IMG/VR virus record: IMGVR_UViG_3300031718_000003
Span: 1-64,000 of that record
DNA: 64,000 bases
From: a virus
Reading direction: 5' to 3' (one strand)
Shown: positions 1 through 23,222 of the stretch, piece by piece
Layout: each line of letters begins with the position of its first letter
Numbering within the stretch: position 1 is the stretch's first letter
Position numbers and translations under genes: made by a program
Notes under the pieces: generated by a model
Told to the model about the DNA's origin: nothing
What the model saw: the letters and a program-made list of their open reading frames with translations, nothing else
Database searches by the model: none

Positions 1-41
1 TTCTGGTTCACCCCGAAGAAATGAGTGTTAAGAAGTTGAAG

Positions 42-806
42 TTACGGCCCAATCACATAGGAATTGGAGAAGATGTTCCAGTTTCCTCGTGGGTCCCTGC
101 CGTTATTGGCTGATTCACACTGCGAGAGCATCGCCGGTGAGTTGATAGACCGGATAGTCCTCAGCGAGTTCCGTGCGGTTAGCATCGCACTCTCAGTCAT
201 CTTGCCGCCCTGGTTCTCAAAGCGATCGGCCAGGCGCATCGCGAGGTTGTATTCGATGGCCTCCTGATACGCCGGCGGAATAATCACCGTGTCACCAGAG
301 GTCACAAACTGCTCGACAGCCTGCCAGAGATACAGGGCGATCTGCCAGCCGTTCAGCGGAACCGGAAACACGCTGACGCGGCCATTCGGCACGCTCGGCT
401 CGTAGTAGAGGATGTACGGCACGTTCGATTGCAGGAGTTTTGGCGACACCGAGGCCCATTCCTGACTACCCCAGAGCACGCGCATGGGCTGCTCGATGAC
501 GGGGTCGACGTCGGTGAACAGGAAGCCAGCCTGCTCGATCTTCTCCGGTCGGTCGATTTCCCAGTCGATCGGTCCATCGGTAGGGTCCATGCCGATGATG
601 TAGGTGTCCTGGCCGGAGTTTAGCGGGAACACGTTGCGCGTCACCGCGTAGATCATGAGCCGCTGGGCCTTCCAGGCGTCGAGCATGGAATTCAATACGT
701 TGAAGCCCTCGGTCACTTGTTCGGGTGATGGGCCACGGCCAGGGGCGCCCATGACGTGGGCGATGCGGAGTGAGGTGTTGATGAGAGCGGAGACTAGTAA
801 GGGCAT
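42..806 (-). CDS. P22 gp4-like head completion / head-tail adaptor protein
   Basis: N-terminus (LINTSLRIAHV...PSPEQVTEGFNVLNSMLDAW) and C-terminal PPAYQEAIEYNLAMRLA resemble podovirus adaptor proteins; lies downstream of the coat gene. Confidence 0.6.
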   Translation of the reverse strand: MPLLVSALINTSLRIAHVMGAPGRGPSPEQVTEGFNVLNSMLDAWKAQRLMIYAVTRNVFPLNSGQDTYIIGMDPTDGPIDWEIDRPEKIEQAGFLFTDVDPVIEQPMRVLWGSQEWASVSPKLLQSNVPYILYYEPSVPNGRVSVFPVPLNGWQIALYLWQAVEQFVTSGDTVIIPPAYQEAIEYNLAMRLADRFENQGGKMTESAMLTARNSLRTIRSINSPAMLSQCESANNGRDPRGNWNIFSNSYVIGP

Positions 807-906
807 GAGAAGACTGAATTAAGAGAAAGATGATTTCTTCGGGGTGAGCCAGGCGTCGCAATCGGCAACCCGCCGTTTGCGCCTGTAGACAGGTGCGGGG
901 TAGTTC

Positions 907-1383
907 CTAAATCGGTCCGCGGGCGTTGAAATCGAACGCCAAGCCCCGGCGACGCTTACCCGAGAAGCGCGCCGGAGTTTTCAGGTGAATGGTATCGCCG
1001 ATTTTGAGGGACGAAGAACTGGCGGCGTCGTAGGTTCTGAATCTCTCCTCAGGGGCCATCTGAAGCCGCAACCGCGCCTCGCGTTCTTCTTCCCGATTCT
1101 TTACCAGCACTCCGCCTTTGGCGTGGTCCTCCGGGTCGCGCGGCTCCGGGTAGACCCACTTGGGGAATTCCTGGTCAACGCGAGCCGCTTGCTCTGGTGC
1201 TGCAGCCGCTTGCTCTGGCGCTGCTTCCTGGAACCGTGAGCGGCGGTGGGCTAGTTGCGGATTCGCGGCGGCAAAGATGTCGGCGAAAAGGGGCGTTTCC
1301 TCGGCTGGTTCGACGTGTGGAAACTCCACAACCGGCTGTGCGCCGCCGTACTCGCCGAGCTTCTGAGTGAACATCTCAGCCAT
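907..1383 (-). CDS. hypothetical mosaic protein
   Basis: Shares QEFPKW...DH.KG..LV.N.EEE with 4073..4342; contains a 66-bp segment also present at 36051-36116. Confidence 0.5.
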   Translation of the reverse strand: MAEMFTQKLGEYGGAQPVVEFPHVEPAEETPLFADIFAAANPQLAHRRSRFQEAAPEQAAAAPEQAARVDQEFPKWVYPEPRDPEDHAKGGVLVKNREEEREARLRLQMAPEERFRTYDAASSSSLKIGDTIHLKTPARFSGKRRRGLAFDFNARGPI

Positions 1384-1945
1384 TTTCAGCGCTGCGGAAC
1401 AGATGGTTGCTCCATCTCACTTTCGCCGGATCGGCTTTTATTTCGTCGATCTTGGCGCGCACCGCGTCAATTCCACTTTTCATGGGCTCATTGAACAGGC
1501 GAAACAGAGAGAGCGCATTGTTATAGAAAGAGACGCCCTCACCGTCCGTTCCCCAGCAGGAGCCCAGGCCGCATAGTGACGCGAGAGCCTCCAGGCTTGC
1601 GCCGGGCATGGCTTGCGGATTCCAGTGCTCTACGATCCAAGCAAGCTCCGATTGTTCTGCTGCTCTGGCCTCGGCCTTGGCTTTCAGTTGCTCGATGGCG
1701 TCAGGTTCGGCTTTACGGACTAGCGTCAGCACTGGGGCATCGAACCACGAGCACTCGCCGCCGTCCTCGGTGAATATGAGGGAATAGTGTTGCCGGAGAT
1801 ATTCTGTATTAGGACCATTGCTGTCGCCGTAGAGATCGCTGTACGAGCCCAGTACAAGCGCCTCTCCCTTTCTCCAGCCACTCGAGATTACGAGGTCGCC
1901 GCGCTGAAACTTCTGTGCGTGGGTTAACATGTCAGCCGAGGTCAT
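1376..1945 (-). CDS. hypothetical phage protein
   Basis: ORF overlapping its neighbours in operon fashion. Confidence 0.55.
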   Translation of the reverse strand: MTSADMLTHAQKFQRGDLVISSGWRKGEALVLGSYSDLYGDSNGPNTEYLRQHYSLIFTEDGGECSWFDAPVLTLVRKAEPDAIEQLKAKAEARAAEQSELAWIVEHWNPQAMPGASLEALASLCGLGSCWGTDGEGVSFYNNALSLFRLFNEPMKSGIDAVRAKIDEIKADPAKVRWSNHLFRSAENG

Positions 1946-2171
1946 CCCTCAAATTCCGTTCGAGGACGTCGAGTGCCTGCTCTTTGATCTGTTGTGGTGT
2001 GATTACCGAACCGTAGTTCGCTTTCACCATCCCAACTGCCTCGCAGGCCGCCCAGAGTTCGTCGCCATCAATCCAAAGGAGCATTCGGTCAACGAGTGGA
2101 TCGGTAATGCGGGCATCAACGAAACGCTTGCGCACCTCCTCCTTTAGCTTCTGCGTTGCGTCGTAGGTCAC
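1932..2171 (-). CDS. hypothetical protein
   Basis: ATGA-type coupling with 2168 ORF. Confidence 0.5.
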   Translation of the reverse strand: MTYDATQKLKEEVRKRFVDARITDPLVDRMLLWIDGDELWAACEAVGMVKANYGSVITPQQIKEQALDVLERNLRDDLG

Positions 2172-2730
2172 ATCCCTTCACCCTCTTCGCAGTCGATGGT
2201 CACCTTCACACAGGCGATACGCGGTTCCTCGTAGATGCGCCCTTCTGGCTTGGTGAGGTGTAAAAAGATGCTGCCGTCCTTGAAGACGTTGATCCACACG
2301 TCCCGCTTGATGCGACGCGGCATGTTGACCAGGTCGAGGGTATCCAAACCCGAATAGTATTCGCCCCGCCCCGTCCATCGGCCCAACTGCCACTCGCCGG
2401 AGGTTGGCTTAGCAATAGACCCATGTATTGGATATGCCCCACCAGCATCCGTTGCGTAGATCCGCACCTCGCGTCCGTCCCGCGTGCGCATATGCTTTGA
2501 GAGATCGAGCGTCGGCTTCCCTGGCTCTCCCTTTGGGCCGGGGCAGTCGGTTCCCCCGGCATAGTAGATACCGCAGTTCTTGCAGCGCGCCGTGTCCACG
2601 ATGGTCCATTTGTGGTCCAAGTGTGTAACGACGCATGGATTGGAGTCTGTGATCCATCCGTTGTCACGGAGTTTGCCGCAGTTCTTGCAGCGCAGCTCCT
2701 CGATCGTGGTCCAGTCGTGTTTCACGCGGT
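2168..2730 (-). CDS. hypothetical phage protein with CxxC pairs (start approximate)
   Basis: RTRDGREVRIYATD...YPIHG motif typical of small phage proteins; two CKNCG motifs. Confidence 0.5.
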
Positions 2731-3085
2731 ACCCTCCAGGCGCAAACGGCGGATCGTCGGGGGCCGCGCCTGGCTCGCCCCGAAGCAAAAAGCATTTGTT
2801 TGAAGCTGGCGCCCACCCATCACAGGAAGCCTTGGAAGTTCCGGCTGGAGAAGAGAAAACAGTTAATTAACTATTCCGAGGACATTCAGCCGAACTGAAC
2901 GGCCCTAGATCCTTGCATCCATTCACCGTGCAACCTTACCATTTGTGAAACCTTACAACCTGGAGCCTGTAAAAACCTTGAGCCTTGAAGTTTTGCCAAC
3001 TGCCCCCCAGGAGGGCTTGCAAATTCATTATAATGAACGGGCCGATTCATTATCATGAATTCAAGCGCCCTTGGGGGGCAGCGGC

Positions 3086-3160
3086 TGGAGTCTGAAACAG
3101 GATTTGAACCTGCGACACCTCGATTAACAATCGAGTGCTCTACCGCTGAGCTATTCAGAC
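3086..3160 (-). tRNA. tRNA-Asn (GTT) with encoded CCA
   Basis: Minus strand GTCTGAA TAGCTCAGCGGTAGAGC A CTCGA TTGTTAA TCGAG GTGTC GCAGG TTCAAAT CCTGT TTCAGAC T CCA folds into a cloverleaf. Confidence 0.9.
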
Positions 3161-3541
3161 ACTTGAATTGCCATCAAGTGTTTAGTCTCGATCGCGAGAC
3201 CAGCGTCCCATCTTTCCCGGTTTTTATCTCTGCGTGTCGGGCGTGAATTGTCAAAGACCAAAAATCTGGAACTTCTTTGCTTCGGGGTCTCGACTAGAGG
3301 CCCGCACACGTTGCGGCCTTGTCTGCAGATAATCTCAGGCCCTTATCTGCGTCTCTAGCCAAGTCAATTGCCCTCACCCCTGTTCGTTTGCGCCTGATCT
3401 CTCGACGGTTCCGAACGCAAACGGCGGATTGGACCACAGGCCGCTGAGGATACTCAGCCTTGTCCCCGGATAAGCAGGGACCTCCCGCGTGCCAATGGCC
3501 AGCGACAGCTACTCACCCCGAAGTCATAAAAAAAAACAGCG

Positions 3542-4054
3542 CTACAGCCCTATCACATCCGTGACGGCATTGGTAACTTCTAATTGCGCATCGATGAGTG
3601 ATGGCTCATCGCGGTAGAGCGCGACTTTCTCATCCCGTGTCGCGGGATCGTAGTAGCGCCGGATCTTAACATCCACTGTCTGGCCAGCCGACTGCTGCGC
3701 TTTGCCTTCCCGCAGGTTGCGGTCGGTGAGCGAAGCCCAGATGGCCTGATCGAGTTTCGCCAGGTCGCGGCGACGGTGGACCCATTCGGCGATCGACTTC
3801 TTGATATGGTGGCCACCCAGCTCGATCGAGACGGTAGTCTCGATGTTGGTCTTCTGGATCGCGACCCGCAGCTTCAGGATGCGCTGCACCGAATCCGTGT
3901 ACGACTGGATCCACTCATCCACCTGGCGGCGTTGATCGGGATACACTGCGGTCTCGAAATCGAGATCCGCGCAATGTAGCGCTACCTTTTTCTGGAGATC
4001 GGCCAGCTTCTCGGCCAGCCGCTTGATCTCCTTCATGGCCTCAATGATCTTCAT
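3542..4054 (-). CDS. DIP1984/DUF6847-like coiled-coil protein
   Basis: MKIIEAM...LRVAIQKTNIET...SIAEW...IDAQLEVTNAVTD pattern. Confidence 0.6.
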   Translation of the reverse strand: MKIIEAMKEIKRLAEKLADLQKKVALHCADLDFETAVYPDQRRQVDEWIQSYTDSVQRILKLRVAIQKTNIETTVSIELGGHHIKKSIAEWVHRRRDLAKLDQAIWASLTDRNLREGKAQQSAGQTVDVKIRRYYDPATRDEKVALYRDEPSLIDAQLEVTNAVTDVIGL

Positions 4055-4072
4055 TGAAGTCCAGTTTAGCGC

Positions 4073-4342
4073 TTATTTTCCTGCTGCTGCGCGCGCCCTG
4101 GCGTTCCGGCTCGGCGTGCGGACTGGCGCGGTCTCGGGTTCCGCCGTTTCCGGTTCCTCGGTTGGCTCGATTTCAGGGGAGAAGTGACCGTGCTTCTTAT
4201 GCCAGGCGGTCTCTTCCGCTTCATTGCGCACGAGGGTTTTGCCGGAGGCGTGGTCGTCTGGGTCCGCGTTAGGAGCGGTTAGCCATTTGGGAAATTCTTG
4301 GAAGACATACGGGGGCTTGGGGGGGCGTTCGTCGAGGTTCAT
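4073..4342 (-). CDS. hypothetical phage protein
   Basis: RBS AAGGA upstream; QEFPKW motif. Confidence 0.55.
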   Translation of the reverse strand: MNLDERPPKPPYVFQEFPKWLTAPNADPDDHASGKTLVRNEAEETAWHKKHGHFSPEIEPTEEPETAEPETAPVRTPSRNARARAAAGK

Positions 4343-4927
4343 TATAGTTCCTTTTTCAAGATTTGGATTGCTTCGGGGTCGGTCAGAAGTCGCTATCGGC
4401 GGGCGTTCGTTTGCGCCTGTTCAGGCCGCCGCTTTCATTCAATAAAGTGGCCCATGTGCTCACAGACGACTGACCGTGGTGGCGCGAGAGCCGGATCCAG
4501 ACCGAGTAAACTCCGCGCGTGCGTCAGCGACTCGGGCGTTACCCTCCAGGATTTTCCGGGGCAGTCCAGGTTAGGCTCAGCGGTCACGTATACCCAGACT
4601 GCAAACGGGTACGCGGATTGATTGCGAGCGGGTTTGGGTCCGCATATAGAACAGCCGTGTTCAACGAGGAATTGGCGCGTGGATGCTGCCGCCTCTTTGG
4701 TTGAGATCATGCCGTCGAGCGTCACGCTCCGCATCCCTTGGTTTCTAGTGCGCACCTACACAGCCTTCGCGCTTCGGCGATGGATTGCTCGGCGGTATCA
4801 AGGGAGCCATCCGCCGCGGCGCGGGCTGCGTCTTTGAGATTCTGCACAATCCCGCGCGTGAGCTGCTCGATGAGCGCGTGCCTGTAGTGCTTGTGGTCGG
4901 GATCGGGAACTAGTGTGAGGTCCGGCA

Positions 4928-5200
4928 TCAGTGTTTGCTCCAGTGAGATCCGGGCTTGCCATCGCTCGATCTATTGTCGCCTTTCGGCATATGCCCTGAG
5001 CCGCCGAGTATGCGGTCGGCCTTGGCGTCGATCGAAGCCTTCTGCGCCGGGGTGATGTTTCCCGCGCTCTCCTGCTGTGAGGCGCGTGCTTTGGCATTGG
5101 CCGCATGACTAGCGTCCGGCATGGGATATTTTCGTTCCGCCGGCAGACCGAACGTGGAGGCGGGGAGCTTGTTGCGTTCTTCGGCGTGTAGTTTTGCCAT
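4928..5200 (-). CDS. small basic phage protein (RNKLPASTFGLPAERKYPMPD..HA.NA..RA family)
   Basis: Recognisable conserved phage motif; RBS AAGGA. Confidence 0.6.
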   Translation of the reverse strand: MAKLHAEERNKLPASTFGLPAERKYPMPDASHAANAKARASQQESAGNITPAQKASIDAKADRILGGSGHMPKGDNRSSDGKPGSHWSKH

Positions 5201-5287
5201 TTGTATTTTCCTTTGGATTTGCCGGGCGCGCCGAAGTTCAGGCGCAAACGGCGTATGGTCGAGAGAAGAGCCGGGCTGACCCCGAAG

Positions 5288-6094
5288 CTAAGTGATTTGA
5301 CTCAAATCCGTAAATAGTTGTTGGTAGTGAAACCCACTTGGCGCGACCCCATTGGCTGCAATAAAGTCTTTTGAGAGGATTGCCCAGGCTTCCGAACCAT
5401 ATAGTTTCAAGAATCTCCAGGTGGCATCGTAGATCGTGGCCCAGGTGACGAGCTGCGTCCCCGCGTGGTTCTGCTGATCGACTCCATATGCCACGAGCGG
5501 TACACAGTGGCCGCCCCAGCTTCCCGGAGCGCCGTCGCCTGTCGTGTCCTGTGGGACATCCCATACCGGGCAGCCATTTATGCCGGGGAAGGTCTGTTGC
5601 GCCGTTATAGGAAGATTGAGACCGACGAAACAGCCGCCAAACAGCCAGATGGCCTGCTTGACCTCGGCCTGGTTCGTAATATCGACCGAGACAAAGGCAT
5701 CAATCTTGTGGCCGCCGATTCCGGTGTTGCGCCAGTACTTCAGTGCGTCCAGCATGACGCAACCGTTGTCGGTCGAGGGATCGCCAGCAACGTAGCCGCT
5801 GACATCCTCGTAGGCTGCGAGGATTTGATTTTCACTCGGGGTGCAGAGGCTTTCGGCGTTTGCGGTCCAGTCCTGGATCAAGTGCCCAGCGGCGGCGATG
5901 ACGCAGTCGCCCAATTCGTCGTTACCGAACATAGGAAAAGCTGGGACCTTGCCGGCATACCCGGAGTTTTCCGGGGGCGCCCATAGCCCGGTCAGGTACT
6001 TGCCCAGTTTGAGCGTTCGCTTGTCCGTTCTGGCCGGCTTTCGGCCCAGTTTGATAGGACCGTGAACCGGGTGCTGGAATGTCGGTAGGGTCAC
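5288..6094 (-). CDS. papain-like cysteine peptidase
   Basis: GND..GDCVIAA (Cys), GGHCVPLVAY (His), VTW motifs. Confidence 0.7.
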   Translation of the reverse strand: MTLPTFQHPVHGPIKLGRKPARTDKRTLKLGKYLTGLWAPPENSGYAGKVPAFPMFGNDELGDCVIAAAGHLIQDWTANAESLCTPSENQILAAYEDVSGYVAGDPSTDNGCVMLDALKYWRNTGIGGHKIDAFVSVDITNQAEVKQAIWLFGGCFVGLNLPITAQQTFPGINGCPVWDVPQDTTGDGAPGSWGGHCVPLVAYGVDQQNHAGTQLVTWATIYDATWRFLKLYGSEAWAILSKDFIAANGVAPSGFHYQQLFTDLSQIT

Positions 6095-6876
6095 TTGTGG
6101 TACTCCGATTTCTTGCGGGTCTCGCCAGGTTTTTCAGCCGCTGCGACTGGCGGCGAGAGGATTCCATCGGGCGGCCCGAATGGGGCTGTCGTACGGCCGC
6201 TCCAGTTCGCGGCAATATGCGCATCGGCGCTTTCGAGGTGATAGCCAACAATCTCCGGAATGAGCGATCGCTTCGCGCGGGGCCACTGCATGGCGAATAC
6301 GGTGTCGGTCCGGCCTGCGTCGGAGTGTTGCTCGGGATAGGTCAGCCTTCCACTCGCTGCGTGCCACAACTGGAAGAAGCCGAGCGGGATATAGCCCCAG
6401 CCCTCCGCTTCCACACAGAGGCGCGTCCCCAGCGGAAACTTGTCCAGGTGTACGTAGCTTCTCGATTCGTGCTGCAACTGCGGCAGGCTCATAAAACGCC
6501 GCCATTGCTGGTAGTCGCGGCAGACGTGACGGTCGATCCCGTACAGGAACTCAGGATCCGGATTCATAAACTCCAGGAATTTGCGTGTGAGCGGAGGGAG
6601 CAGAATATCGGCGTCCATGTGCAGCAAATAGGCATCGCGATCAAGGGCTTCCAGCCCCACATTGATCCCCCTGCCTTTGTAAAAGCTGCCCCAGCGCGTT
6701 TCGAAAAGGTCGGTCGGAATGCAGGTGACATTCCAGTACTCGCACACGCGGCGCGTGGCCTTGTCCTCGGGGGCCGTGACCACGACGAGCTTGTCGAATA
6801 GGACTCTGTTGTGGCAGAGGGTTTCCGCGAGGAAGTCGGCGTACCCAACCGACGTAACTACACACTCAATTTTCAT
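6091..6876 (-). CDS. GT-A fold (family 2-like) glycosyltransferase
   Basis: KGRGINVGL...LLHMDADILLP DxD motif, GFFQL. Confidence 0.7.
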   Translation of the reverse strand: MKIECVVTSVGYADFLAETLCHNRVLFDKLVVVTAPEDKATRRVCEYWNVTCIPTDLFETRWGSFYKGRGINVGLEALDRDAYLLHMDADILLPPLTRKFLEFMNPDPEFLYGIDRHVCRDYQQWRRFMSLPQLQHESRSYVHLDKFPLGTRLCVEAEGWGYIPLGFFQLWHAASGRLTYPEQHSDAGRTDTVFAMQWPRAKRSLIPEIVGYHLESADAHIAANWSGRTTAPFGPPDGILSPPVAAAEKPGETRKKSEYHK

Positions 6877-7607
6877 TCAATGCCTGGCTTAATGCCCGGA
6901 CCAGTGCGATTTTCCGCTGCCCTCGTGGGCGACGTGGTCCCGCTTGCCGCTGCGCTTGACCGCGTGGTTCTCGGGGTACTGCTCGGTGTTGGGCTGGGTG
7001 TTTGAGTTGCCGGTTTGCACATCTGGCTTGATGGGCGGCTCTTGGGTTGTGCCATTGTTCATGGTGTCGTAGTCGTTTGCGTTTGATGGGATTTTCATGG
7101 TTTGCTCCAGCGATAAAAGTCTTGATTGCTTCGGGGTGAGTAGTGTGCGCTCTGGACTAATCAGCGTTTGCGCCTGAACAGGAGGGACTGGCCATTGGCA
7201 AGCGGTATCCCGCGGCCACCGGCCAGGAACAGGCGCAAACGGCGGATGGTCGAGAGCGCACGCTACCGACCCCGAAGATAAAAGGAAACAGCTTGTGTTA
7301 ATTGAAGAAATTCAAAGCGACGACTGCTCTTCTTCCCTTATTTTTTTCGCTTAGCATAATTCGGTTTCCGTATTCACTGGGAAGATGTGCAGATTGACCC
7401 GGTAACTCGTCGCGACGCCGGCGAGGGCGTCTTCTGCCTCCTCGCGGGTGGCGTAGTAGTAGAGGTGCTTGGCTAACCGCAAGGCTTCTACCCGATTCCG
7501 CGCAAGTGTAAAGACCACAGGAGGCAGCGCGCCATGCTTGGGTGCGATCTGTTTAGGGGGAACCACCTTGTCTCGATTCTACGCGACTTCGGAAGTGATG
7601 ACCTGAC

Positions 7608-8006
7608 TCAGGCGGGATCGTAGGTCACAAGTACAGTATTGCCAGTCGTCCCGTCTATCCACATTTCAGAAATGTTGATTGCGGCATCGGGGTCGGTGTC
7701 GGAGTAGCTGCCGCCAGGGGTGTTGACATCGGCTGCTTTTACGAGCTCAGCGATCAGTTGGCCGGCGGTTCCGATCGCGGGCGCTCGGCCCTGACCGGCC
7801 TGGAGCACGTAGCCGGTTCCGCCGCCGGCATTCGGGAGCATCTGGATGAATAGCCGCTTTACCCGGAAGAAGGGCACAAAGAACGTCGAGCCGGTGGGCG
7901 CTAGCGTGCTAGTCCAGCCTGCCGTGGCCATGGCTGCGGCGGAAAGACCGGAGTAGAGATTGACTGGTGCTCCGTTGGTGAGGGTGAGGGTAAGAGAGAT
8001 TTTCAT
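7608..8006 (-). CDS. putative structural protein
   Basis: Thr/Gly-rich beta-type composition, head module. Confidence 0.45.
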   Translation of the reverse strand: MKISLTLTLTNGAPVNLYSGLSAAAMATAGWTSTLAPTGSTFFVPFFRVKRLFIQMLPNAGGGTGYVLQAGQGRAPAIGTAGQLIAELVKAADVNTPGGSYSDTDPDAAINISEMWIDGTTGNTVLVTYDPA

Positions 8007-8171
8007 TTTGAGTCCGCGTTAGAGGATGAAGAAGGTTTCTTCGGGGTCAGCAGCCAACGCCCTCGTCGATCAACGTTTGCGCCTGTTCAGACAGCACGGA
8101 AGAACGGGCGCAAACGGCGGATCGCCGGGAGCAATCAACTACTCACCCCGAGAAAAGGCTTTAGAGTTAGC

Positions 8172-8957: not shown

Positions 8958-8997
8958 GGTTGTAGTTTTTCCTTGTGTTTTTCTTGGGCTTCGCGGC

Positions 8998-10815: not shown

Positions 10816-10884
10816 CTTGCCTTTTTTGGTTTGGCGATCACCGCACGCGCGGGACGCCTGGGTTGAACAAACTGCAAAAACGAT

Positions 10885-12144: not shown

Positions 12145-12313
12145 GAGTGGTATGGTTCCTTTGATACAGGCCGCAGATCCCTAATTTCTTAAGGCCAGGT
12201 CTGTTGGGTTGGGATTAGGATTCCAGAAAGATAAAAATGCTTGTTGCTTCGGGGTCAGACACAAACTGCTTTCAGCCCCCAACGTTTGCGCCTGATCTGT
12301 CAGAATAAGAAGC

Positions 12314-12736
12314 ATGAGATCAAGTTCGGATGTTCGCAGGAGAATAAAGGTGGCCCGGAACGTTGTGAGACGGTTCGTTCGCCATACGCCGAATGCAAAG
12401 ATCGTCGAGCTGCTCGATGCGGCACGTCAAGGTAAGGTCACGTGCTTTAAGGCTGGGACCTGCCTTGTGGATAGCGTCTATGGGCGCAGGGCGTGGATGG
12501 ACAGAGCTGGCTTCCACTTTGGTCAGACGACTTACCATGCCTGGGTCTTGCTTGGTTTCAGGGGGAATGAGAGATCCTTTTCTATCCTGGCTGGAGGAGA
12601 CGATCGTCTGCGCAATCGGAGGCTGGTGCCTATCATTCTCGCGGAAGTGAAGCGGCGCAACGCTATCCATTGGCATTCCCCGGCAGTTGGGCTGGCCGGC
12701 CCTGCAGGCACGACCGTACTCGTATCTTGGCAATAG
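12314..12736 (+). CDS. hypothetical moron gene, opposite strand to the late operon
   Basis: ORF fills the portal-scaffold gap; preceded by the dispersed element. Confidence 0.45.
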   Translation: MRSSSDVRRRIKVARNVVRRFVRHTPNAKIVELLDAARQGKVTCFKAGTCLVDSVYGRRAWMDRAGFHFGQTTYHAWVLLGFRGNERSFSILAGGDDRLRNRRLVPIILAEVKRRNAIHWHSPAVGLAGPAGTTVLVSWQ

Positions 12737-12754
12737 TCCCACGCACCCATGTGG

Positions 12755-14980
12755 TTATTGTTCCCCTTGTGGCTGGCCCTGCTGTGCCTGCGCCTGTTGC
12801 TGTTGCGTAGCCATATCCTGCTGGTGCTGCTGATCGGTCTGCTGCATCCCCTGCTCGTGCTGTTGCTGTTGGTCGGCCTGCTGGGATTCCGCCTGGATGC
12901 CGACGTTGGCTTGCAAGAGATCGAGGCGATGCTTGATGGAACCAAATTCCAAGGCCGCGAGCTTCTGGGCTTCGGCGCTCTTAGCTGACAGCTCGGCGAC
13001 GACGATATTGGTCGCGTTGTTCTGGCTTGCGATGCGTTCGCGGCTCTCGAGATCCAATTGCTTGGTCTCGATGATCTGGCTTAGCTTGTGAAGCTGCTGG
13101 GTCATCATCTGGATCATGGTCTGTTGCTGCTGCATCTGGGCCTGGACCTGCGGTGGAACGGGGTCTTGGTCGCCGCTTTGTGCGACACCAGGGGGCATCA
13201 GGCGATCGGCGAGCTCCTGGGCTTGCGGGATGTCCAACATGCGAACCAGGATGTCAGCGCCGCGCGCCATCACCTGGGGCATGGCTTGCGCGAGTTGCAT
13301 GAGTTGATCGGCGCCCTGCTGACGGCGAGAGGCGTAGCTCGGCCCGGTGCCGATTGTGACGTCGTAGCGCGCGGGCCGGTGGTTGATGCCGATTTTGAAG
13401 ATCCTCTGGACCGCGCCTTCCTTAAACATCTGGTTGATCTTGATCTGCTTCACCGTTTGGTCCGGGTTCACGATGTTCATGACCCGAGGCTCGGAGTAGA
13501 CGTAGGGGATCAAGTCCAGCTTGATTCGCGCATCGTGCTTCATGGCGCGCGCCAGGTTGTCGTGATAATTGAAATGGGCGTTGTCGCTCTGCCTCTGCCG
13601 GGCATTGATTGCCACCCCGGACTTCTCCGGGGCGGGAGCGCCTAACGATGGATCAAACGTCGAGAGCGCGGCCTTGGTGTCGTCGGAAGCCGCCCTGATC
13701 GCCTGGGTGATCGCCTGGACGGCCGGCTCGGCGTTGATGCGAATCGGGGCCGGGATGGGGTCGTTCTGGTCGCCGATGTGTTTGTATTCGAGGTAGCTGA
13801 AGGCTTTGCGGTTCGCGTCCGCCCATGTCGCCTGATGGCCTTCGAGCTGGCCTTCTGCCACGAGCCATTGCGAGATTGGCGCGAGGCCGATGGCTTCGGC
13901 TTCCTTCGACCGCATGTAGTCGTATTGCAGGTTGGCATCCTGGGCCATGCGCACCATACCGTGCAACTGGCGTTTGCCGTCCTTGATGATTTCGCGCCCC
14001 AGTACCGGTACGAGCGGTATCCACTTACCCGGCCAATCGACCTTCTCGATGATGCCCATGCCGGTTAATTTCGCCATTTTGACCGTACGCTTCTCCACTT
14101 GCCGCTCACCCAACTGGCGCATACCATCGGGGACTTTGTTCTTCGCAACTACCTTCCGGTTATCGAGAAGGACGACGGTTTCCAGGTCGGTTTCGACATA
14201 CCAGTACTCCGCCACTCGCACGGCGCCGTTCGGGAACCACTCGGTCCGGACTTTGTCGCCGGTTGCCGAGAAATCGGCGAGTCCCGCTGCATGGGCGTCG
14301 GGGTACAGGTCTTCGAATACGTCCTTGTCGATGTCCTCGGTGACAAAGCAATAGCGCATGTCCGAGTAATCGAACTGGTCTGCGGCCGGGTCCGGATAGA
14401 CACAGAACGGGTTTGCGATGCGGCCGACGACGATCTTCTGCTCAAACGAGTCGTCTGCTTCGTACTCGAATAGAATCCTCCACCACGCCCGCCCGATCTG
14501 CACCGCAGGCTCGTAGGCGCTCATGTAGGCGATTTCGGCCGAGGAGTCCTGATCGATGTTGCGTAGGATGCCTTCCAGAATTTCCGCGGTATCTTTATCG
14601 GCGCCGGCGCCTACCGGGGAGATCCGCGCCTCGGGCGGCGATTGCCGCATGTCGTTGATGACTTGATCGATACTCGGGCCGATCTTGTCGAACACGAGAC
14701 AGGGACGCCCCTGACGCTCGGCCTTCATGACCGGGTCCCAGTGGTCGCCCGCGAGGAAGTTCAGTTCGCTTTGGGCTTTGATGCGCCATTCCGATTCGTA
14801 GGATTGGACGGTGCGGAATCGCTCGAGCGCCTGGTCGTGCAGGTCCTGATCGGCTTCGGAGACCGGTGCATCGCCCGATTTCACGCGGCTCGCAATTCCC
14901 ACGGCCATCGGTTGGCGCACGCTTGCACTGGTGGCTACGGTGGCTAGGGATTGTTGGGTATTAGGAGGAGAAGGAGACAA
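12755..14980 (-). CDS. P22-like portal protein
   Basis: GDHW...RPCLVFDKI, VRVAEYW, WPGKWIPLVPVLG, SGVAINARQRQSD, YDVTIGTGPSYASRRQ; Q-rich tail. Confidence 0.92.
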   Translation of the reverse strand: MSPSPPNTQQSLATVATSASVRQPMAVGIASRVKSGDAPVSEADQDLHDQALERFRTVQSYESEWRIKAQSELNFLAGDHWDPVMKAERQGRPCLVFDKIGPSIDQVINDMRQSPPEARISPVGAGADKDTAEILEGILRNIDQDSSAEIAYMSAYEPAVQIGRAWWRILFEYEADDSFEQKIVVGRIANPFCVYPDPAADQFDYSDMRYCFVTEDIDKDVFEDLYPDAHAAGLADFSATGDKVRTEWFPNGAVRVAEYWYVETDLETVVLLDNRKVVAKNKVPDGMRQLGERQVEKRTVKMAKLTGMGIIEKVDWPGKWIPLVPVLGREIIKDGKRQLHGMVRMAQDANLQYDYMRSKEAEAIGLAPISQWLVAEGQLEGHQATWADANRKAFSYLEYKHIGDQNDPIPAPIRINAEPAVQAITQAIRAASDDTKAALSTFDPSLGAPAPEKSGVAINARQRQSDNAHFNYHDNLARAMKHDARIKLDLIPYVYSEPRVMNIVNPDQTVKQIKINQMFKEGAVQRIFKIGINHRPARYDVTIGTGPSYASRRQQGADQLMQLAQAMPQVMARGADILVRMLDIPQAQELADRLMPPGVAQSGDQDPVPPQVQAQMQQQQTMIQMMTQQLHKLSQIIETKQLDLESRERIASQNNATNIVVAELSAKSAEAQKLAALEFGSIKHRLDLLQANVGIQAESQQADQQQQHEQGMQQTDQQHQQDMATQQQQAQAQQGQPQGEQ

Positions 14981-15106
14981 GGCGAATTACTCAGAAAGGG
15001 GAAAAGCAGTTGATAACCGACACAAAGACAGATGATTTCTTCGGGGTCCGTGGTCGATTGCCCTCCGCGCTCGACGTTTGCGCCTAGAGGGTCTAAACTG
15101 TCAGAT

Positions 15107-15385
15107 ATGCCTTGTTCCGACTACCACGATCACGGGCCGACCCCAGAAGAGGTCCGCCGTCAGGACATCATGTGCCGTCTGGCGTGCGAGTACTGTTCGA
15201 CGCTAAAGACCACGGGTAAGGAAATTCCGCTCTACGCGCGAGAGTGGTGGCAGCAGCACGAACGTGACGATAAGGCTCGAATTGTCACAGAAGCGAAGCG
15301 CGAGCGCGTGCCTCAATTGGTGCGCTCCGGCCTTGCAAAACTGACCCCGAAGGAGTGCGAGGCGCTGGGCCTGCGGAAATTCTGA
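15107..15385 (+). CDS. hypothetical phage protein (moron)
   Basis: MPCSD...WWQQHERDD...GLAKLTPKECEALGL, a common small phage family. Confidence 0.55.
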   Translation: MPCSDYHDHGPTPEEVRRQDIMCRLACEYCSTLKTTGKEIPLYAREWWQQHERDDKARIVTEAKRERVPQLVRSGLAKLTPKECEALGLRKF

Positions 15386-15388
15386 CCT

Positions 15389-15724
15389 TTATGAGTACCC
15401 CGTTGTATCCAGTTCCTGCGCATGCCGCCGCATCCGGCTGAACATTGGGACGCGCGTGCCGGTTTTATTGCCCAGCCACACCGATTTCGCGGTATGGGCC
15501 ACGTGGTTGGACATCGCCTGCAATGCGCCTGGGTTTTTGAACACGAAAGATTTCGTGGCCTTTATTGCGTTCGGCCCCGAGCCGAAGTGGTGCGTGGCCG
15601 TGAATCCGTTCGCCGCGGGGTGAATATGGATCGAGGTCAGCTTGGGCGCGTGGACCGACAGCACCTTTGGAGGGTGCGGAGGCTTGGCGATAGCTAGCGT
15701 GGTTTTGGGTAGAGGCGCGAACAT
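15389..15724 (-). CDS. hypothetical protein
   Basis: IHIHPAANGF.ATHH motif shared with 16498..16806. Confidence 0.5.
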   Translation of the reverse strand: MFAPLPKTTLAIAKPPHPPKVLSVHAPKLTSIHIHPAANGFTATHHFGSGPNAIKATKSFVFKNPGALQAMSNHVAHTAKSVWLGNKTGTRVPMFSRMRRHAQELDTTGYS

Positions 15725-15839
15725 TTAAGTTCTTCCGTTTCCTTTTTTCTTCGGGGTCGGCCCGGAACTGCCATGAGCCTCCAACGTTTGCGCTCGGTCC
15801 TTTGGTTTGATACTAATCAAAAGCGAGGAAAACACAGAA

Positions 15840-16226
15840 ATGGACAACATCCCCTTGGAGGAAGTAATTGCGCGTGTCTGCCACGCCGCTAATCGGGCCT
15901 ACTGCGAGTCCATGGGCCACAATTCACAGCCGCCGTGGGACGAGGCGCCCGAATGGGAGAGAAGTGTGGAAATCCGGGGCGTGCAACTTCATTTAGCAAC
16001 CCTCAAAGCTGGTGAAAAGCCTGGGCCTGGGACGTGGCACGAGAAGTGGATGGAGAAAAAACGTCGCGAAGGATGGTGCTACGGCCCGGTGGAAGATGCG
16101 GTTACGAAGCGTCATCCTCATTTCCTGCCTTATGTCGATCTGCCTATGGAGCTGCGGATGAAAAACCACATCTTTGTCGGTATCGTCGGTGGATTTTTCG
16201 AAGCGCTGGAGAGTTTCAGGAGCTAG
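15840..16226 (+). CDS. RyR-domain phage protein (moron)
   Basis: IARVCHAANRAYC...HEKWMEKKRREGWCYGPVED...HP..LPY.DLP. Confidence 0.75.
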   Translation: MDNIPLEEVIARVCHAANRAYCESMGHNSQPPWDEAPEWERSVEIRGVQLHLATLKAGEKPGPGTWHEKWMEKKRREGWCYGPVEDAVTKRHPHFLPYVDLPMELRMKNHIFVGIVGGFFEALESFRS

Positions 16227-16497
16227 GAAGTGGAAACTCTGGATCGAGCACCCATCCTTTCAGCACACGGCATCCATCGGCCCTGATTCGGCTGACCTCG
16301 AGGCCAAGCGGCAATTCTTCGCCGTAGTCGATCCTTACTAGCGCCAGCTGGTGGGCGTCAATGAATACAACGTTGTGCTCAATGGAATAGAATTCCGGCA
16401 CTTGTCGTCGCTCAGTGGTTTGATAGAGTCCGGCCGGCAGCGTGTCGAGATCGTAGCCAGGTGCGAGCGCCTGGCGCGCAAATTCCCGCCCTCGCAT

Positions 16498-16806
16498 CTA
16501 CGCCGCCTTGGGTTTTTCCTTACCCTGCGCGGGCTGCGTTTTGACGCTCTTGGCCGGCGCGGCAGCATCTTTTTCCTTTGACTTCGGTTTCTTGCCGCCA
16601 CCGAAGGTGTCGTTTACGTGCGCTCCCAGGTCCTCCGAGTCCATGAACACTTTGCGTTCCGGCTCGGGGAAGGGGTCGTCTTTGGAGGTGGGGTGGTGGT
16701 GGGTCATGGCGACGAAACCGTTGTCGGCGGGTTCGATTTCCATGCGCCGTACCCCTTTATGGGCGGCTGCTGGCTTGCGGGCTGAGGCTGTGACTACTTG
16801 TTGCAT
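16498..16806 (-). CDS. hypothetical protein
   Basis: RBS AAGGAG; MEIEPADNGFVAMTHH motif. Confidence 0.55.
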   Translation of the reverse strand: MQQVVTASARKPAAAHKGVRRMEIEPADNGFVAMTHHHPTSKDDPFPEPERKVFMDSEDLGAHVNDTFGGGKKPKSKEKDAAAPAKSVKTQPAQGKEKPKAA

Positions 16807-16925
16807 GAGGTGTGTTTCTCCTTTGAGATTTGGGTGAAGATGATTTCTTCGGGGTCAGACAAGACTCGCTCTCGGCCATCAACGTTTGCGCCTAGAGGGT
16901 TTAAACTGAATTCAAGAGTCCCACT

Positions 16926-17207
16926 ATGAATCGCCGCCACTTCTTCGCGCTGGTTGCCGCTCTGTTCACGGGCCGGAAGGCGCTGGGCGCGACCCCGACT
17001 CCTGAGGCGTCGGTGGTCGAATACTCTTATCACCTTGTGAATGCGATGCCCGCCAACTTTCATCACTGGATAAGCCCGATGAAGCAGATGGGCCCCGAGT
17101 ACTTCTTCTGTGATGGAAGCGACATCTATGTTTGGCCGCCGTTGCGGAGGATCACCGAAGAGACGAGGCCCGCGAACAGCAGGAAGAAGCCAAGCGGCGG
17201 AAGATAG
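16926..17207 (+). CDS. hypothetical protein with Tat-like N-terminus (MNRRHFF)
   Basis: Twin-arginine-like start; promoter-like TAAACT upstream. Confidence 0.45.
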   Translation: MNRRHFFALVAALFTGRKALGATPTPEASVVEYSYHLVNAMPANFHHWISPMKQMGPEYFFCDGSDIYVWPPLRRITEETRPANSRKKPSGGR

Positions 17208-17228
17208 TCGAACTTCGACGCGCTGAAA

Positions 17229-17711
17229 TTACGAGCCACTGACGATCGGCTTCTGCGCGACCGGGTGCTCGCGACCCTTCGCCACCTGGTGGATCGGGAC
17301 TACCTGCCCGTTCTTCACATGGTGGTAGAGCGCATCCGGGTCGTTCAGGGCAGATGACAACAGGTGGTACGGCCTGCCCTCGGGATCGTGAATCACGTGG
17401 CTCCCGTCGGTGGGAAGATGGCAGTGCTCGAGCAGCTCCTGGATCGACGTGTGCTGTTTCACTGTCGCGGTCTGCCGCTTCTTGTGCTCGCCGTATTCCA
17501 GTTCGATGCGCTTCGGCGTGAAGATCTCAGGTTCTTCCTTCTTGGCTGCGCCTTCTTCAGCCAGGGCGTCACCGAGCGTCGCGGCGTCCTGTTTCAGCTT
17601 AGCGCCCGATTCAGAGTCAGGGTCAGACGGTTCATAGTCAGGGTCAGACGGTTCATAGTCAGGGTCAGGCGTTGGATCGTTCGGGTCTGGAACAGCATTT
17701 TTGTTGGGCAT
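17229..17711 (-). CDS. hypothetical protein with PDYEPSD tandem repeats
   Basis: RBS TAAGGAG; 21-bp tandem repeats near 17617-17667. Confidence 0.55.
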   Translation of the reverse strand: MPNKNAVPDPNDPTPDPDYEPSDPDYEPSDPDSESGAKLKQDAATLGDALAEEGAAKKEEPEIFTPKRIELEYGEHKKRQTATVKQHTSIQELLEHCHLPTDGSHVIHDPEGRPYHLLSSALNDPDALYHHVKNGQVVPIHQVAKGREHPVAQKPIVSGS

Positions 17712-17874
17712 TCAGGTTCTCCTTATTGGAGTTAAGTCTACTTCTTTTCTTCGGGGTCCGTGGTCATCGCACTGATCGGGCGTTCGTTTGCGCCTGATCT
17801 CTCGACCAGTCCGAACGCAAACGGCGGATTGGTGAGAGAGACAGCTACCCCGAAGCCATGATCTTTAGCTTTAT

Positions 17875-18411
17875 CTAATCCTCCAGCACAGCCAACACAT
17901 GCTGCGTGGTCTCGGCATCTTCGTGGAGGATCATATACTCCTTGCCTTCGAACATCACTTCTGAGCCTGGCCTCTGGAGGTAGAGGATGCGGTCGCCGAT
18001 CTTCAGCTCCATGGGCCGACGCTCGGTATACAGGTGGCCATCAGCTCCCGTGTGCAGTAGCTCGGTGTTGTTTGATCCGCAGTGTGGGCAGTTGGCTACG
18101 GCGTGACCGAAATCATTGGGGCCGCTGACGCGTCGAATTGTGCTCGTGTAAAAAGGATCTCTATGACCACTCACATCGCTACAGTGTCTACACCACAAGC
18201 CAATGGCGCGGTCTCCCGGACCCACCGCGATCACCAGGCCGGTGCGGTAATAAACTTCCTCCTGGCGCGCCCGCTCCGGAATCCAGATTGATCCGCGCAT
18301 CGCCGGCGCTTCGTCTGGGAGCACGAGCACCTGGTCTTCGAGGGGTTCGAAGGTGGCGGGGTCGAAGAATTGCCCCACGTATGCCTCGGTACGCTTATAT
18401 GTGAATGGCAT
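17875..18411 (-). CDS. groES: GroES-like co-chaperonin with zinc-finger insertion
   Basis: FEPLEDQVLV...GSIWIPE...GLVIAVGPG...ELKIGDRILY...GSEVMFEGKEYMILHE...VLAVL. Confidence 0.8.
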   Translation of the reverse strand: MPFTYKRTEAYVGQFFDPATFEPLEDQVLVLPDEAPAMRGSIWIPERARQEEVYYRTGLVIAVGPGDRAIGLWCRHCSDVSGHRDPFYTSTIRRVSGPNDFGHAVANCPHCGSNNTELLHTGADGHLYTERRPMELKIGDRILYLQRPGSEVMFEGKEYMILHEDAETTQHVLAVLED

Positions 18412-18909
18412 AACTAAAATCTACTTCATGGCTTCGGGGTCGGTGGGCAGAAACAATCCGCAACCCGCCGTTTGCGCCTGGAGCGTCGAGTACCATTGGA
18501 AACCCCGCTCTGCGCTCATTGCTCCGCGGAGATATTGCTCTCGGACTTTTGGTTCGTTCTTCACGCATGCGTCCAGGAAGTCGTGAATGTGTGCAGTAAG
18601 TTCCTCAAGGGCCGGGGGTCTCGTCAGCCCAGGCGCAAACGTTGAGCGCGGGGAGCAGCGCCGGGCGGACCCCGAAGTAATCGGCATTGCGTTCATCTTG
18701 GAGTTAATTCAGCCTCGCGAGAGCTCTCTCAACACTGGTAACCACGGATCGCTGCCAGTTTTGATCGACCATTTGAAAATAAACGCGCAGCGCTTCAGCC
18801 AAGCTCATGGTTCGAACGGCGCCGATCGAGGAATAGCCACTGCCGAATAAACCGCACCAGTAAGCTTCTGGTGGTTTGCCAACAGGCAGAATGCGGAGGC
18901 TGGGTTTCA

Positions 18910-22902: not shown

Positions 22903-22982
22903 AATGTGTTTTCCTTTTTTGCTTCGTGGTCAGTAGACTGCGCTCTCAGCGATCCGCCGTTTGCGTTCGGACCCGTCAAGAG

Positions 22983-23167: not shown

Positions 23168-23185
23168 AAATCAGCGTTGTCTTTA

Positions 23186-23222
23186 GTTGCAATATCCAGC
23201 TCACGGAAGAAGGTAGTGAGAC
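23186..23222 (+). CRISPR. solitary CRISPR repeat 1
   Basis: GTTGCAATATCCAGCTCACGGAAGAAGGTAGTGAGAC, one mismatch to array repeat 9 (61960-61996). Confidence 0.93.

Follow-up and report, generated by a model that had tools for sequence, protein, structure and literature searches.

Distribution and structure of the element

The window, a stretch of 64,000 nucleotides, is the first 64 kb of an uncultured soil-phage contig (74.8 kb; 74,759 bp) with a P22-like portal. Between its genes lies a bipartite element of ~50 bases, CAGGCGCAAACG-N29(+/-1)-CCCCGAAG, the halves of which were designated block A (CAGGCGCAAACG) and block B (CCCCGAAG). Scanning the 74,759-bp genome with a profile of the whole element gave about 42 copies. 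In the window, ACCCCGAAG is present 34 times, compared with 0.62 expected occurrences and a maximum of three in shuffled sequences. Nearly all copies are intergenic, a non-random placement (p = 1e-8, even with crude gene calls). The copies found in the window are as follows.

10..18 (+): contig start, with block B alone; inverted, shortly past the stop codon of adaptor gene 42-806(-)
830..888 (-): forward copy whose block B stops 30 nt short of the adaptor ATG
2734..2792 (+): inverted copy, block B being GCCCCGAAG; the A end continues into CTGGAGGG and the GTG start of a minus-strand gene
3280..3399 (-): long-form copy upstream of tRNA-Asn 3086-3160(-), with 97 nt separating the blocks
3411..3523 (+): long-form copy carrying a hairpin-rich insert of 65 nt and placed back to back with 3280-3399
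4366..4423 (-): forward copy preceding genes 4073-4342 and 3542-4054
5236..5291 (+): solo inverted copy; block B adjoins the stop of gene 5288-6094(-)
7123..7283: back-to-back doublet, 7123-7180(-) and 7227-7283(+); read-through RNA fold -76 kcal/mol, z -8.1
8034..8151: back-to-back doublet, 8034-8089(-) and 8103-8151(+), the plus copy with a degenerate block B; RNA fold -64 kcal/mol, z -6.5
12240..12298 (-): forward copy preceding the scaffold gene; retained in relative L181
15032..15089 (-): forward copy preceding the portal gene; retained in L181 with a wholly different middle
15743..15799 (-): forward copy preceding gene 15389-15724; missing in L181; its A end is turned towards the start of RyR-domain gene 15807-16226 (+)
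16840..16897 (-): forward copy preceding gene 16498-16806; retained in L181
17744..17862: back-to-back doublet, 17744-17799(-) and 17809-17862(+), A ends 10 nt apart
18425..18484 (-): forward copy, 20 nt upstream of the GroES-like gene 17875-18411
18627..18683 (+): inverted copy in a loose doublet with 18425-18484, gap 143 nt
22916(-), 24528(-, partial), 26955(-), 29906(-): further copies
30912-31025(-, long), 35233(-), 35490(-), 35786(+), 36029-36128(-, long): further copies
37006(+, block A only), 38212(+), 38478(-), 39044(-), 41554(-), 45293(-): further copies
45552(-)/45616(+) doublet, 46559(-), 47236(+), 47833(-), 49702(-, weak): further copies
53828(+), 56449(-), 62734(+): further copies, this whole group spanning 22916..62779

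A sequence-only reading had described this arrangement as gene modules bracketed by inverted pairs, and its inventory was accurate. The copies it named were all recovered, at 10(+), 837(-), 2737(+), 3280(-), 3411(+), 4371(-), 5239(+), 7129(-), 7230(+), 8039(-), 8105(+), 12247(-), 17811(+), 18432(-) and 18669(+), as were the CAGG-to-CAGG junctions (3399/3411, 7180/7227, 8089/8103, 17799/17809 and 45606/45616), the near-identical linkers at 3385 and 17785, and the genes between the pairs (adaptor, tRNA-Asn, coat, scaffold and GroES-like).

Spacing within the element is rigid: across the family, the distance between blocks A and B is 29 +/-1 nt in 130 of the 148 standard-form copies. The long copies 3280-3399(-) and 3411-3523(+) have a separation of 92-97 nt instead of the usual 29, and the insert of 3411-3523 recurs at 30912-31025(-) and, outside the window, at genome position 72843-72956(+). 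In such long forms block A alone is displaced, while block B stays together with GAnnGC, a semi-conserved motif 9 nt upstream of it. The middle is otherwise free, with some middles common to subsets of copies. Beyond block B, an A at +3 is conserved in 79 of 81 copies, and many copies carry an extra GCGCAC block 7-8 nt upstream of block A. Bacterial genomes contain the pattern at chance level only.

Single copies yielded no consensus fold (0 pairs), which points to recognition of duplex DNA by a protein. A dyad core or hairpin shared by single copies was not found, nor were target-site duplications flanking copies or paired units. As RNA, the doublets fold at -46 to -76 kcal/mol (z -2.8 to -8.1). 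The two arms of a doublet resemble each other as random copies do (similarity 0.50 vs 0.51).

Orientation and conservation of the copies

Tight pairs are joined at their CAGG (block A) ends without exception. A-to-A gaps are as small as 10 nt, B-to-B gaps at least 184 nt, and genes sit between the CCCCGAAG ends of facing copies. Most gene blocks are marked by the element, facing the genes from both ends. The alternation of orientation proposed earlier is strong at the level of the family, where 53 of 74 neighbouring copies in related soil-phage contigs are inverted (binomial p = 1.3e-4); within this genome it is marginal (23 of 38 switches, p = 0.05 against shuffles; p = 0.04 in the region for which it was proposed) and is interrupted by five consecutive minus-strand copies (12240 to 17744). 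On crude gene calls for the whole family, block B points at a start 36 times and at a stop 25 times; for block A the corresponding counts are 25 and 15. Forward copies end 11-40 nt upstream of start codons that have their own ribosome-binding sites. In ~15 copies the A end leads directly into a ribosome-binding site and start codon; therefore, transcripts must cross the element in the B-to-A direction.

Relatives with 27-80% protein identity retain copies at the starts of orthologous genes and at the ends of some. Forward copies persist before the orthologous portal, scaffold, tail, adaptor, sigma and NusG-like genes, with the middle replaced. An inverted copy is kept past the adaptor stop in three lineages (relatives including L159 and L166) and past the endolysin stop in two. 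In one lineage (G004), exact block A is found in 20 copies and exact block B in six. Relatives L009 and L175 differ by a 195-nt indel consisting of an inverted copy and a 31-aa ORF. Relative L184 is 98% identical up to the 5236..5291 copy and diverges ~10 nt beyond its block B. Exchange of modules at the element, also suggested earlier, gains some support from homology breakpoints between related phages, as 7 of the 25 listed (~3 independent events) lie within 30 nt of a copy compared with 6% expected. The flipped modules that the same reading anticipated did not appear: no orthologous module is inverted among the relatives, and collinearity extends across six copies in a 12.4-kb contig of the source run.

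Phage-encoded transcription factors

Three genes in the window are relevant here.

26342..26866 (-): NusG paralog (NGN domain), candidate elongation partner
27911..28555 (+): short tyrosine recombinase, 214 aa, not tracking the element
30272..30907 (-): sigma factor of the FliA/WhiG (sigma-28) family, preceded by a long-form copy

The sigma factor matches FliA in a PDB profile search (E 9e-22) and is a candidate reader of the element. It is present in the element-bearing contigs G004, L164, L175 and L177 and was not detected in G001 and G002, two complete relatives in which both blocks occur at chance level only. Sigma homologues (28-46% identical) are also encoded on 19 other viral contigs without the element. 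The NusG paralog is present in G002, and the recombinase in both G001 and G002. The genome also carries IS1595, IS1-like and TnpB genes.

Promoters recognized by sigma-28 (FliA/WhiG) have the form TAAAGTTT-N11-GCCGATAA, the -10 element GCCGATAA having the core CCGA (PMC2859248, PMC12784957). Similarities are the phage sigma in the family, the CCGA core contained in block B, and GAnnGC at the position expected for the -35 element; the upstream site near -50 is reminiscent of CRP, which sits at -49.5 on the aer promoter (PMC2859248, PMC12784957). However, agreement with the -10 element is limited to 5 of 8 bases, the sequence can be fitted to the sigma-28 geometry in three ways, none of which reproduces the -35 consensus, and block A has no counterpart. 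With block B taken as the -10 element, the start falls downstream of the ribosome-binding site in ~6 copies. A separate three-copy motif with a perfect GCCGATAA precedes the sigma, NusG-like and recombinase genes and could be the true target of the phage sigma. The 19-kb late region contains no more sigma-70-type promoters or intrinsic terminators than chance predicts; a near-consensus sigma-70-type promoter lies at the divergent early region (50708-50679).

The element as a putative promoter and unit boundary

The element is most likely a phage-specific transcription start and boundary signal rather than a DNA-flipping site. Specifically, we assign a probability of roughly 45% to a phage-specific promoter that doubles as a unit-boundary signal and is used in both orientations. 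We infer a mechanism in which the element punctuates transcription units. In the A-to-B direction it would be a promoter read by host RNA polymerase with the phage sigma-28-family factor, block B and GAnnGC 9 nt upstream forming the core. Transcripts would start at or just past block B, the conserved A three nt beyond being the candidate start, and block A, ~50 bp upstream, may provide an extra contact for an activator or the polymerase alpha subunit. The NusG paralog may join polymerase at the promoter. Back-to-back copies, or inverted copies at the ends of gene blocks, would act as boundaries: a promoter complex facing an oncoming polymerase could impose a head-on stop or fire antisense RNA, and a doublet in read-through RNA would fold into a long hairpin. 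Since most gene borders carry these ~50 bp, the copies may also serve as joints for exchange of gene blocks between related phages.

Of the two readings suggested earlier, convergent promoters fits best, given the positions before starts, the conservation, the rigid spacing, the lack of a fold and the sigma gene, although orientation is more two-sided than a plain promoter would lead one to expect. Counted in favour of a promoter were the rigid spacing, the fold-free copies, the position before orthologous starts, the inverted copies kept past stops, the NusG paralog, the CCGA of block B, GAnnGC and its link to block B in long forms, and the co-occurrence of sigma, together with the scarcity of sigma-70 promoters and terminators, the absence above chance from bacteria, the doublet folds and the breakpoints at copies. 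Counted against it were the two-way orientation, less one-sided than a plain promoter predicts; the cost of convergent full-strength promoters around structural genes; the sigma homologues in contigs without the element and the alternative three-copy GCCGATAA motif; and the unmatched -35, the NusG paralog in G002 and the B-to-A transcripts across the element.

Alternative explanations

The strongest competitor, though an unlikely one, is a duplex-DNA site for a phage DNA-binding protein and not a promoter. Blocks A and B (in some copies with GCGCAC) would hold an insulating or repressing protein, for example a roadblock, acting largely independently of orientation, with an A-to-A pair forming a stronger two-fold site. 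Rigid spacing around a free middle, absence of a fold, the nearly symmetric orientation relative to gene direction, the invariably A-to-A tight pairs, the GCGCAC block and the better retention of block A than B in the G004 lineage (20 vs 6 exact) all agree with this. However, no candidate for the binding protein emerged, start codons are close to block B, and the bases past this block are conserved (A at +3, 79/81) as a start site would be. In Cluster A mycobacteriophages, stoperator-type sites are aligned with the direction of transcription, whereas copies of the element are not.

Less likely still is a selfish or recombination-spread repeat (MITE, REP/BIME or Correia type), multiplied into intergenic gaps mostly as back-to-back doublets, with regulatory effects such as RNA hairpins or outward promoters being secondary. 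Units of the REP/BIME and Correia (CREE) types are either palindromes or sequences with terminal inverted repeats and target duplications, mobilized by RAYT or DDE enzymes. The element shares with them intergenic inverted pairs and RNA hairpins, which in those repeats can affect transcript ends. Alternating orientation in short A-to-A units of 10-650 nt, variable presence among close relatives (the L009/L175 indel; 15743 missing in L181), shared middles in subsets of copies, the two near-identical linkers, the IS1595, IS1-like and TnpB genes and the long doublet hairpins are what such a repeat might leave. On the other hand, single copies of the element are not palindromes and show no terminal inverted repeats, target duplications or RAYT/DDE mobility, doublet arms are no more alike than random copies, and the blocks are perfect at orthologous places across deep divergence. 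Moreover, none of the transposases follows the distribution of the element (the inverted repeats of the IS1595 copy are its own and unrelated), and bacterial genomes lack it above chance.

An improbable explanation places the function in RNA: copies flanking a block would pair mutually, and doublets internally, within polycistronic transcripts, giving stems that are cut by RNase III or stabilize the message, comparable to rRNA processing stems and T7 RNase III sites. The doublet folding energies, the flanking of gene blocks by inverted copies, transcription of the element where the A end belongs to a leader with a ribosome-binding site, and intrinsic terminators not above chance are compatible with it, but same-orientation runs (12240 to 17744) have no partner, partner middles do not co-vary, single copies have no consensus structure, and a rigid A-to-B spacing would be meaningless for a stem between distant copies.

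Least probable are site-specific recombination sites, at which inverted pairs would let a dedicated recombinase flip, excise or swap blocks (shufflon, integron, pdif): despite the bracketing of gene blocks, the mosaic joints at copies and a short, FimB-sized tyrosine recombinase (27911-28555) whose gene orientation varies between lineages, the invertible cassettes proposed earlier are unsupported, as dyad core, hairpin and duplications are absent, the recombinase occurs in the element-free complete genomes G001 and G002, no relative has an orthologous block turned round, the source-run contig is collinear, the late genes are all on one strand in canonical order, and recombination between ~25 direct-repeat copies would delete essential genes.

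Comparison with known repeated signals

The RfaH ops (JUMPstart) element acts within the leader and in a single orientation. Features in common are a conserved sequence that precedes many operons and a dedicated NusG paralog. However, agreement with the ops consensus GGCGGTAGCGTG is limited to 7 of 12 bases (GGCGGATCGCTG in some copies), and the link between NusG paralog and element is inconsistent across relatives.

Intergenic repeats of halovirus HF2 are demonstrated promoters, some bidirectional, that give rise to long counter-transcripts (Russ et al. 2021, PMC8707807). Like the element (~50 bp), these repeats (29-58 bp; PMC8707807) contain several conserved motifs and keep their place and orientation among relatives. 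HF2, however, is a virus of archaea whose promoters are of the TATA/BRE type, and its repeats number only about a dozen, with no systematic back-to-back pairing.

The T4-type phages RB49 and phi1 carry promoter-early stem-loops (PeSLs), which combine a promoter with a stop signal and shuffle gene modules by inter-copy recombination (Arbiol et al. 2010, PMC2839356). PeSLs have a sigma-70-like promoter and a true stem-loop terminator and are direct repeats in hyperplastic regions (PMC2839356). The element, in contrast, has no sigma-70 consensus and no single-copy stem-loop, occurs in both orientations, also covers late genes and is accompanied by a phage sigma. The element resembles PeSLs in being a short, probably regulatory cassette that recurs at small-gene borders, and in the clustering of homology breakpoints at its copies.

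Anatomy of the element

The virus sequence is a single contig of 74,759 bp with 58% G+C, and the window is its first 64 kb. The genes from 1 to 50 kb are minus-strand and follow the customary order of late genes, from the small and large terminase through portal, scaffold and major capsid to head-tail adaptor. The portal is P22-like, with just 31-38% identity to portals of cultured phages. A plus-strand gene block (50.7-59.4 kb) begins at a divergent region, which carries a near-consensus sigma-70-type promoter, TTGACA-18-TATAGT.

The sequence ACCCCGAAG occurs 34 times in the window (0.6 expected), and alignment of its flanks defined an element of about 50 bp. Block A is CAGGCGCAAACG; block B is C-n-G-ACCCCGAAG, with a conserved A three nucleotides beyond. 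Of 148 standard-form copies in the family as a whole, 130 have 29 ± 1 nt between the blocks, and the sequence of this gap is unconstrained apart from a semi-conserved GAnnGC. Profile searching found 42 copies in the 74,759-bp genome, their intergenic location being far above chance. Five copies are long forms, with blocks 80-97 nt apart and an extra 50-70 nt separating block A from GAnnGC:

3280-3399, minus strand, long-form copy
3411-3523, plus strand, long-form copy
30912-31025, minus strand, long-form copy
36029-36128, minus strand, long-form copy
72843-72956 (genome), plus strand, long-form copy

The same 65-nt hairpin-rich insert is found in three of the five. Since it is sited between block A and GAnnGC, the latter and block B remain together in the long forms. 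A long form in the related contig L158, near 7467, has another hairpin and retains the GCCAATGG motif.

Orientation and spacing of the copies

The copies, pairs and junctions named in the sequence-only reading are all present, and copies 3280 and 3411 lie where it had placed them but prove to be long forms, unlike its description. The near-strict alternation that it reported holds in part: inverted pairs exist, but five consecutive minus-strand copies, from 12240 to 17744, break the pattern, and in this genome alone alternation is marginally above that in shuffles (p ~0.05). A family scan by exact pattern detected copies in viral contigs as well as in 35 contigs from soil metagenomes, and orientation and gap statistics were derived from non-redundant contigs. 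Here neighbouring copies were inverted in 53 of 74 cases (p 1.3e-4); thus, alternation becomes clear when relatives are added. In the family contigs, gaps between A ends are short (median ~290 nt, seven of them at 10-47 nt), and gaps between B ends, where the genes sit, are always at least 184 nt. Taken together, orientation and gaps indicate that the recurring unit consists of two copies placed back to back, CAGG ends facing each other and CCCCGAAG ends pointing to genes, in agreement with the sequence-only reading.

Distribution and conservation

In bacterial genomes the two-block pattern occurred at chance level and profile scores were low, yielding neither a host repeat nor a host clue. 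Neither the element nor the scaffold protein had a match in cultured phages. Phages with a portal of ~48% identity, including the complete genomes G001 and G002, have both blocks at chance level only, and no comparable dispersed repeat was seen in portal relatives lacking the element (L153). A literature search with the block sequences returned primer matches only. The absence from bacteria, cultured phages and portal relatives indicates that the element is restricted to one lineage of uncultured soil phages.

Among relatives at 27-80% protein identity, forward copies, with block B towards the gene start, precede the orthologues of the portal, scaffold, tail, adaptor, sigma and NusG-like genes. 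In inverted orientation, copies are kept 3' of the adaptor stop in three lineages and of the endolysin stop in two. In the portal-gene copy of the related contig L181, both blocks and GAnnGC are kept and the middle is wholly different. Conservation of the blocks with replacement of the middle argues for selection on the blocks at each site, in both orientations. Elsewhere in this contig (L181:3810-3850, minus strand), the counterpart of the copy at 15743-15799 is just a short palindrome of block-B-like halves (GCCTTCGGGGCCGAAGC).

A candidate phage promoter

Forward copies end 11-40 nt upstream of start codons, each of which is served by a ribosome-binding site of its own. In the late 19 kb, neither sigma-70-type promoters nor intrinsic terminators exceed chance frequency, and the element is the sole candidate signal there. 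The phage encodes, at 30272-30907, a sigma factor of the FliA/WhiG (sigma-28) family (profile E 9e-22 against FliA structures; nearest cellular relatives named FliA). Once this assignment was made, sigma-54 and ECF readings of the element (GG-N10-GC and AAC motifs) were dropped. The phage sigma was found in the element-bearing relatives G004, L164, L175 and L177 and not in G001 and G002, both without the element; its distribution tracks that of the element in part. Against such tracking, 19 contigs with more distant sigma homologues lacked the element, and the frequent 10-mers in such contigs were tandem coding repeats.

The sigma-28 consensus is TAAAGTTT-N11-GCCGATAA, with its -10 element spanning -15 to -8 (PMC2859248, PMC12784957). 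Read as a sigma-28 -10 element, block B (CCCGAAGA) matches GCCGATAA at 5 of 8 bases, the CCGA core included, and two further CnGA/CCGA registers are possible. GAnnGC lies at the correct distance for the -35 element but matches TAAAGTTT at 1 of 8 bases. In a second candidate register, the A preceding CCCC is taken as -11; transcription would then begin at the conserved A past block B. This register alone is compatible with all ribosome-binding sites. With such a start, block A would lie ~50 bp upstream; CRP acts on a sigma-28 promoter from a similar position.

A second motif, GGGACAA-N13-CTGCCGATA(A/T), is present in three copies (0.03 expected), each before a gene for a phage factor:

26342-26866, minus strand, NusG paralog (NGN domain E 4e-16; weak KOW)
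26916-26942, minus strand, second motif, before the NusG-like gene
27743-27768, plus strand, second motif, before the gene for the phage-encoded tyrosine recombinase (214 aa)
30862-30888, minus strand, second motif, before the sigma gene

This motif can be parsed as GGGACA-17-GATAAT, a promoter of the host type; such a promoter would fit a cascade in which host polymerase acts first and phage factors follow. The copy before the sigma gene contains a perfect sigma-28 -10 element, GCCGATAA, and the motif could instead be the real target of the sigma in place of the element.

The element is real and apparently a previously undescribed variant of phage regulatory repeats. We tentatively propose, as the likeliest reading (probability about 0.45), that it acts as a phage-specific promoter and boundary signal. 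At a gene end, the promoter complex on an inverted copy would face the oncoming polymerase and might form a head-on block, or it might fire antisense RNA; knowledge of transcriptional interference underlies both suggestions.

Features at odds with a plain promoter

In crude gene calls for the whole family, block B points to a start in 36 cases and to a stop in 25; for block A the counts are 25 and 15, respectively. In about 15 copies the A end leads straight to CTGGAGG, followed after 5-7 nt by a start codon, an arrangement implying that transcripts traverse the element from B to A. Three small plus-strand genes within the minus-strand late region each begin next to the A end of a copy on the minus strand:

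15107-15385, plus strand, small gene
15807-16226, plus strand, small gene
16926-17207, plus strand, small gene

One of these has an RyR domain above the Pfam cut-off, and homologues of the three were absent from the relatives fetched. A homologue of the NusG paralog (33% identity) is encoded by G002, which is without the element.

A site for a protein that does not initiate transcription is a rival reading, which we regard as unlikely. A spreading repeat is doubtful to a greater degree: duplications flank neither single nor paired units, and doublet arms are no more similar than random copies. Should the copies prove to be mobile repeats, or insulators bound by protein, the conservation of inverted copies at the ends of genes would still have to be accounted for. 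The IS1595-family element of this phage was considered as a source and rejected, its ends being unrelated. Doublets would form long hairpins in read-through RNA and consensus folding of single copies yielded no structure (RNAalifold, 0 pairs); a stem for RNA processing is, in our view, improbable.

Possible block exchange and recombination

The sequence-only reading had also considered exchangeable or invertible gene cassettes. Exchange at the element finds some support, but flipping does not. Of 25 listed breakpoints, 7 (~3 independent events, hence small numbers) are no more than 30 nt from a copy, where 6% would be expected. The related contig L184 is 98% identical to 4972-5297 and diverges ~10 nt beyond block B. 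Between two further relatives, L009 and L175, a swapped block is bounded by a copy, and a 195-nt indel consists of an inverted copy plus a 31-aa ORF. A more novel possibility is that the element is the joint of an undescribed soil-phage gene-cassette system, its blocks moved by an unrecognised dedicated enzyme and not by plain homologous recombination, with promoter-like features expressing the inserts; we give this little credence.

No dyad core or hairpin exists in the element, and inverted orthologous blocks were found in none of the relatives. A search of sequencing runs listed one DNA run matching the phage, probably the source sample, and no RNA run. When contigs from the source run were compared with 1-19000, a 12.4-kb contig was collinear through six copies and no rearrangement was seen. 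Apparent joints in this region had sides of 20-59 nt and were cross-matches between copies rather than rearrangements, as judged from contigs only, which rare variants could escape. Given that no inversion was seen and that G001 and G002 encode the tyrosine recombinase yet lack the element, site-specific recombination at the copies is very improbable.

Comparison with known systems

Among systems already described, the nearest are PeSL cassettes in T4-type phages and the intergenic repeats of halovirus HF2, which bear promoters, some firing both ways. A PeSL combines a sigma-70-like early promoter with a stem-loop terminator, whereas the element has no sigma-70 consensus and its single copies do not fold; module shuffling at PeSL copies has a parallel here in the small set of breakpoints (7/25, ~3 independent events). 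REP, BIME and REPIN sequences are imperfect palindromes with a RAYT (Y1) transposase, unlike the element (RNAalifold, 0 pairs), and a scan covering the proteins of part of the ORFs revealed no Y1 transposase. MITEs and terminal-inverted-repeat transposons have target-site duplications and like ends, both lacking in the element. Shufflons use an Rci-type recombinase and sfx sites to exchange alternative ends of one gene, whereas the blocks here are whole unrelated genes and the phage tyrosine recombinase does not track the element. An integron attC site is a hairpin with complementary R''/L'' and L'/R' boxes, served by IntI and attI; blocks A and B are non-complementary and do not fold. The 28-bp pdif/Xer site has two 11-bp inverted arms and a 6-bp spacer, a dyad found in neither block. 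For RfaH and ops/JUMPstart, a NusG paralog is present, but only some copies resemble the ops consensus, agreeing at 7 of 12 bases, and the paralog also occurs in G002. None of sigma-28 promoters, PeSLs, REP/BIME, MITEs, shufflons, attC, pdif and ops has all its defining features in the element.

If the promoter and boundary reading is correct, this lineage would drive most of its middle and late genes by one rigid signal of its own, and the same signal, turned round, would close each gene block. This would provide compact insulation of transcription units without classical terminators, together with a ready joint for block swaps. Uncultured soil phages would also supply a defined promoter and its sigma, with NusG as partner, usable as an orthogonal expression part.

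Introns, CRISPR loci and transposases

Several further features of the genome were recorded:

10470-10688, minus strand, group I intron (Rfam, 88.7 bits, E 2.5e-21), splitting the major capsid gene
23186 and 24061, solo CRISPR repeats, on either side of the small terminase gene
33674-34612, minus strand, IS1595-family DDE transposase, between inverted repeats of its own (33600-33612 and 34623-34635)
43913-45031, minus strand, TnpB (IS605 OrfB)
56553-58289, plus strand, Cas12-like gene with a TNB domain
58304-58490 and 61607-62722, CRISPR, a 17-repeat array and a mini-array with the Cas12-like gene
59457-60305, minus strand, IS1-like DDE transposase, also found in the relative L150

The Rfam search returned a tRNA and the group I intron, nothing else. 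Both capsid exons (~8998-9801 and 10669-10815) have orthologues in relatives. None of the CRISPR spacers targets the element, a single 13-nt match being at chance level. The spacer at 61717-61753 is identical over 35 of 35 nt to the phage's own small terminase gene at 23698-23732. One phage thus carries three kinds of transposase: TnpB, IS1595-family and IS1-like. In two relatives the large terminase gene is split (L146:1927-4380 and L153:3193-7780) by inserts of ~1 kb and 3.3 kb, which may be introns, inteins or homing-endonuclease insertions.
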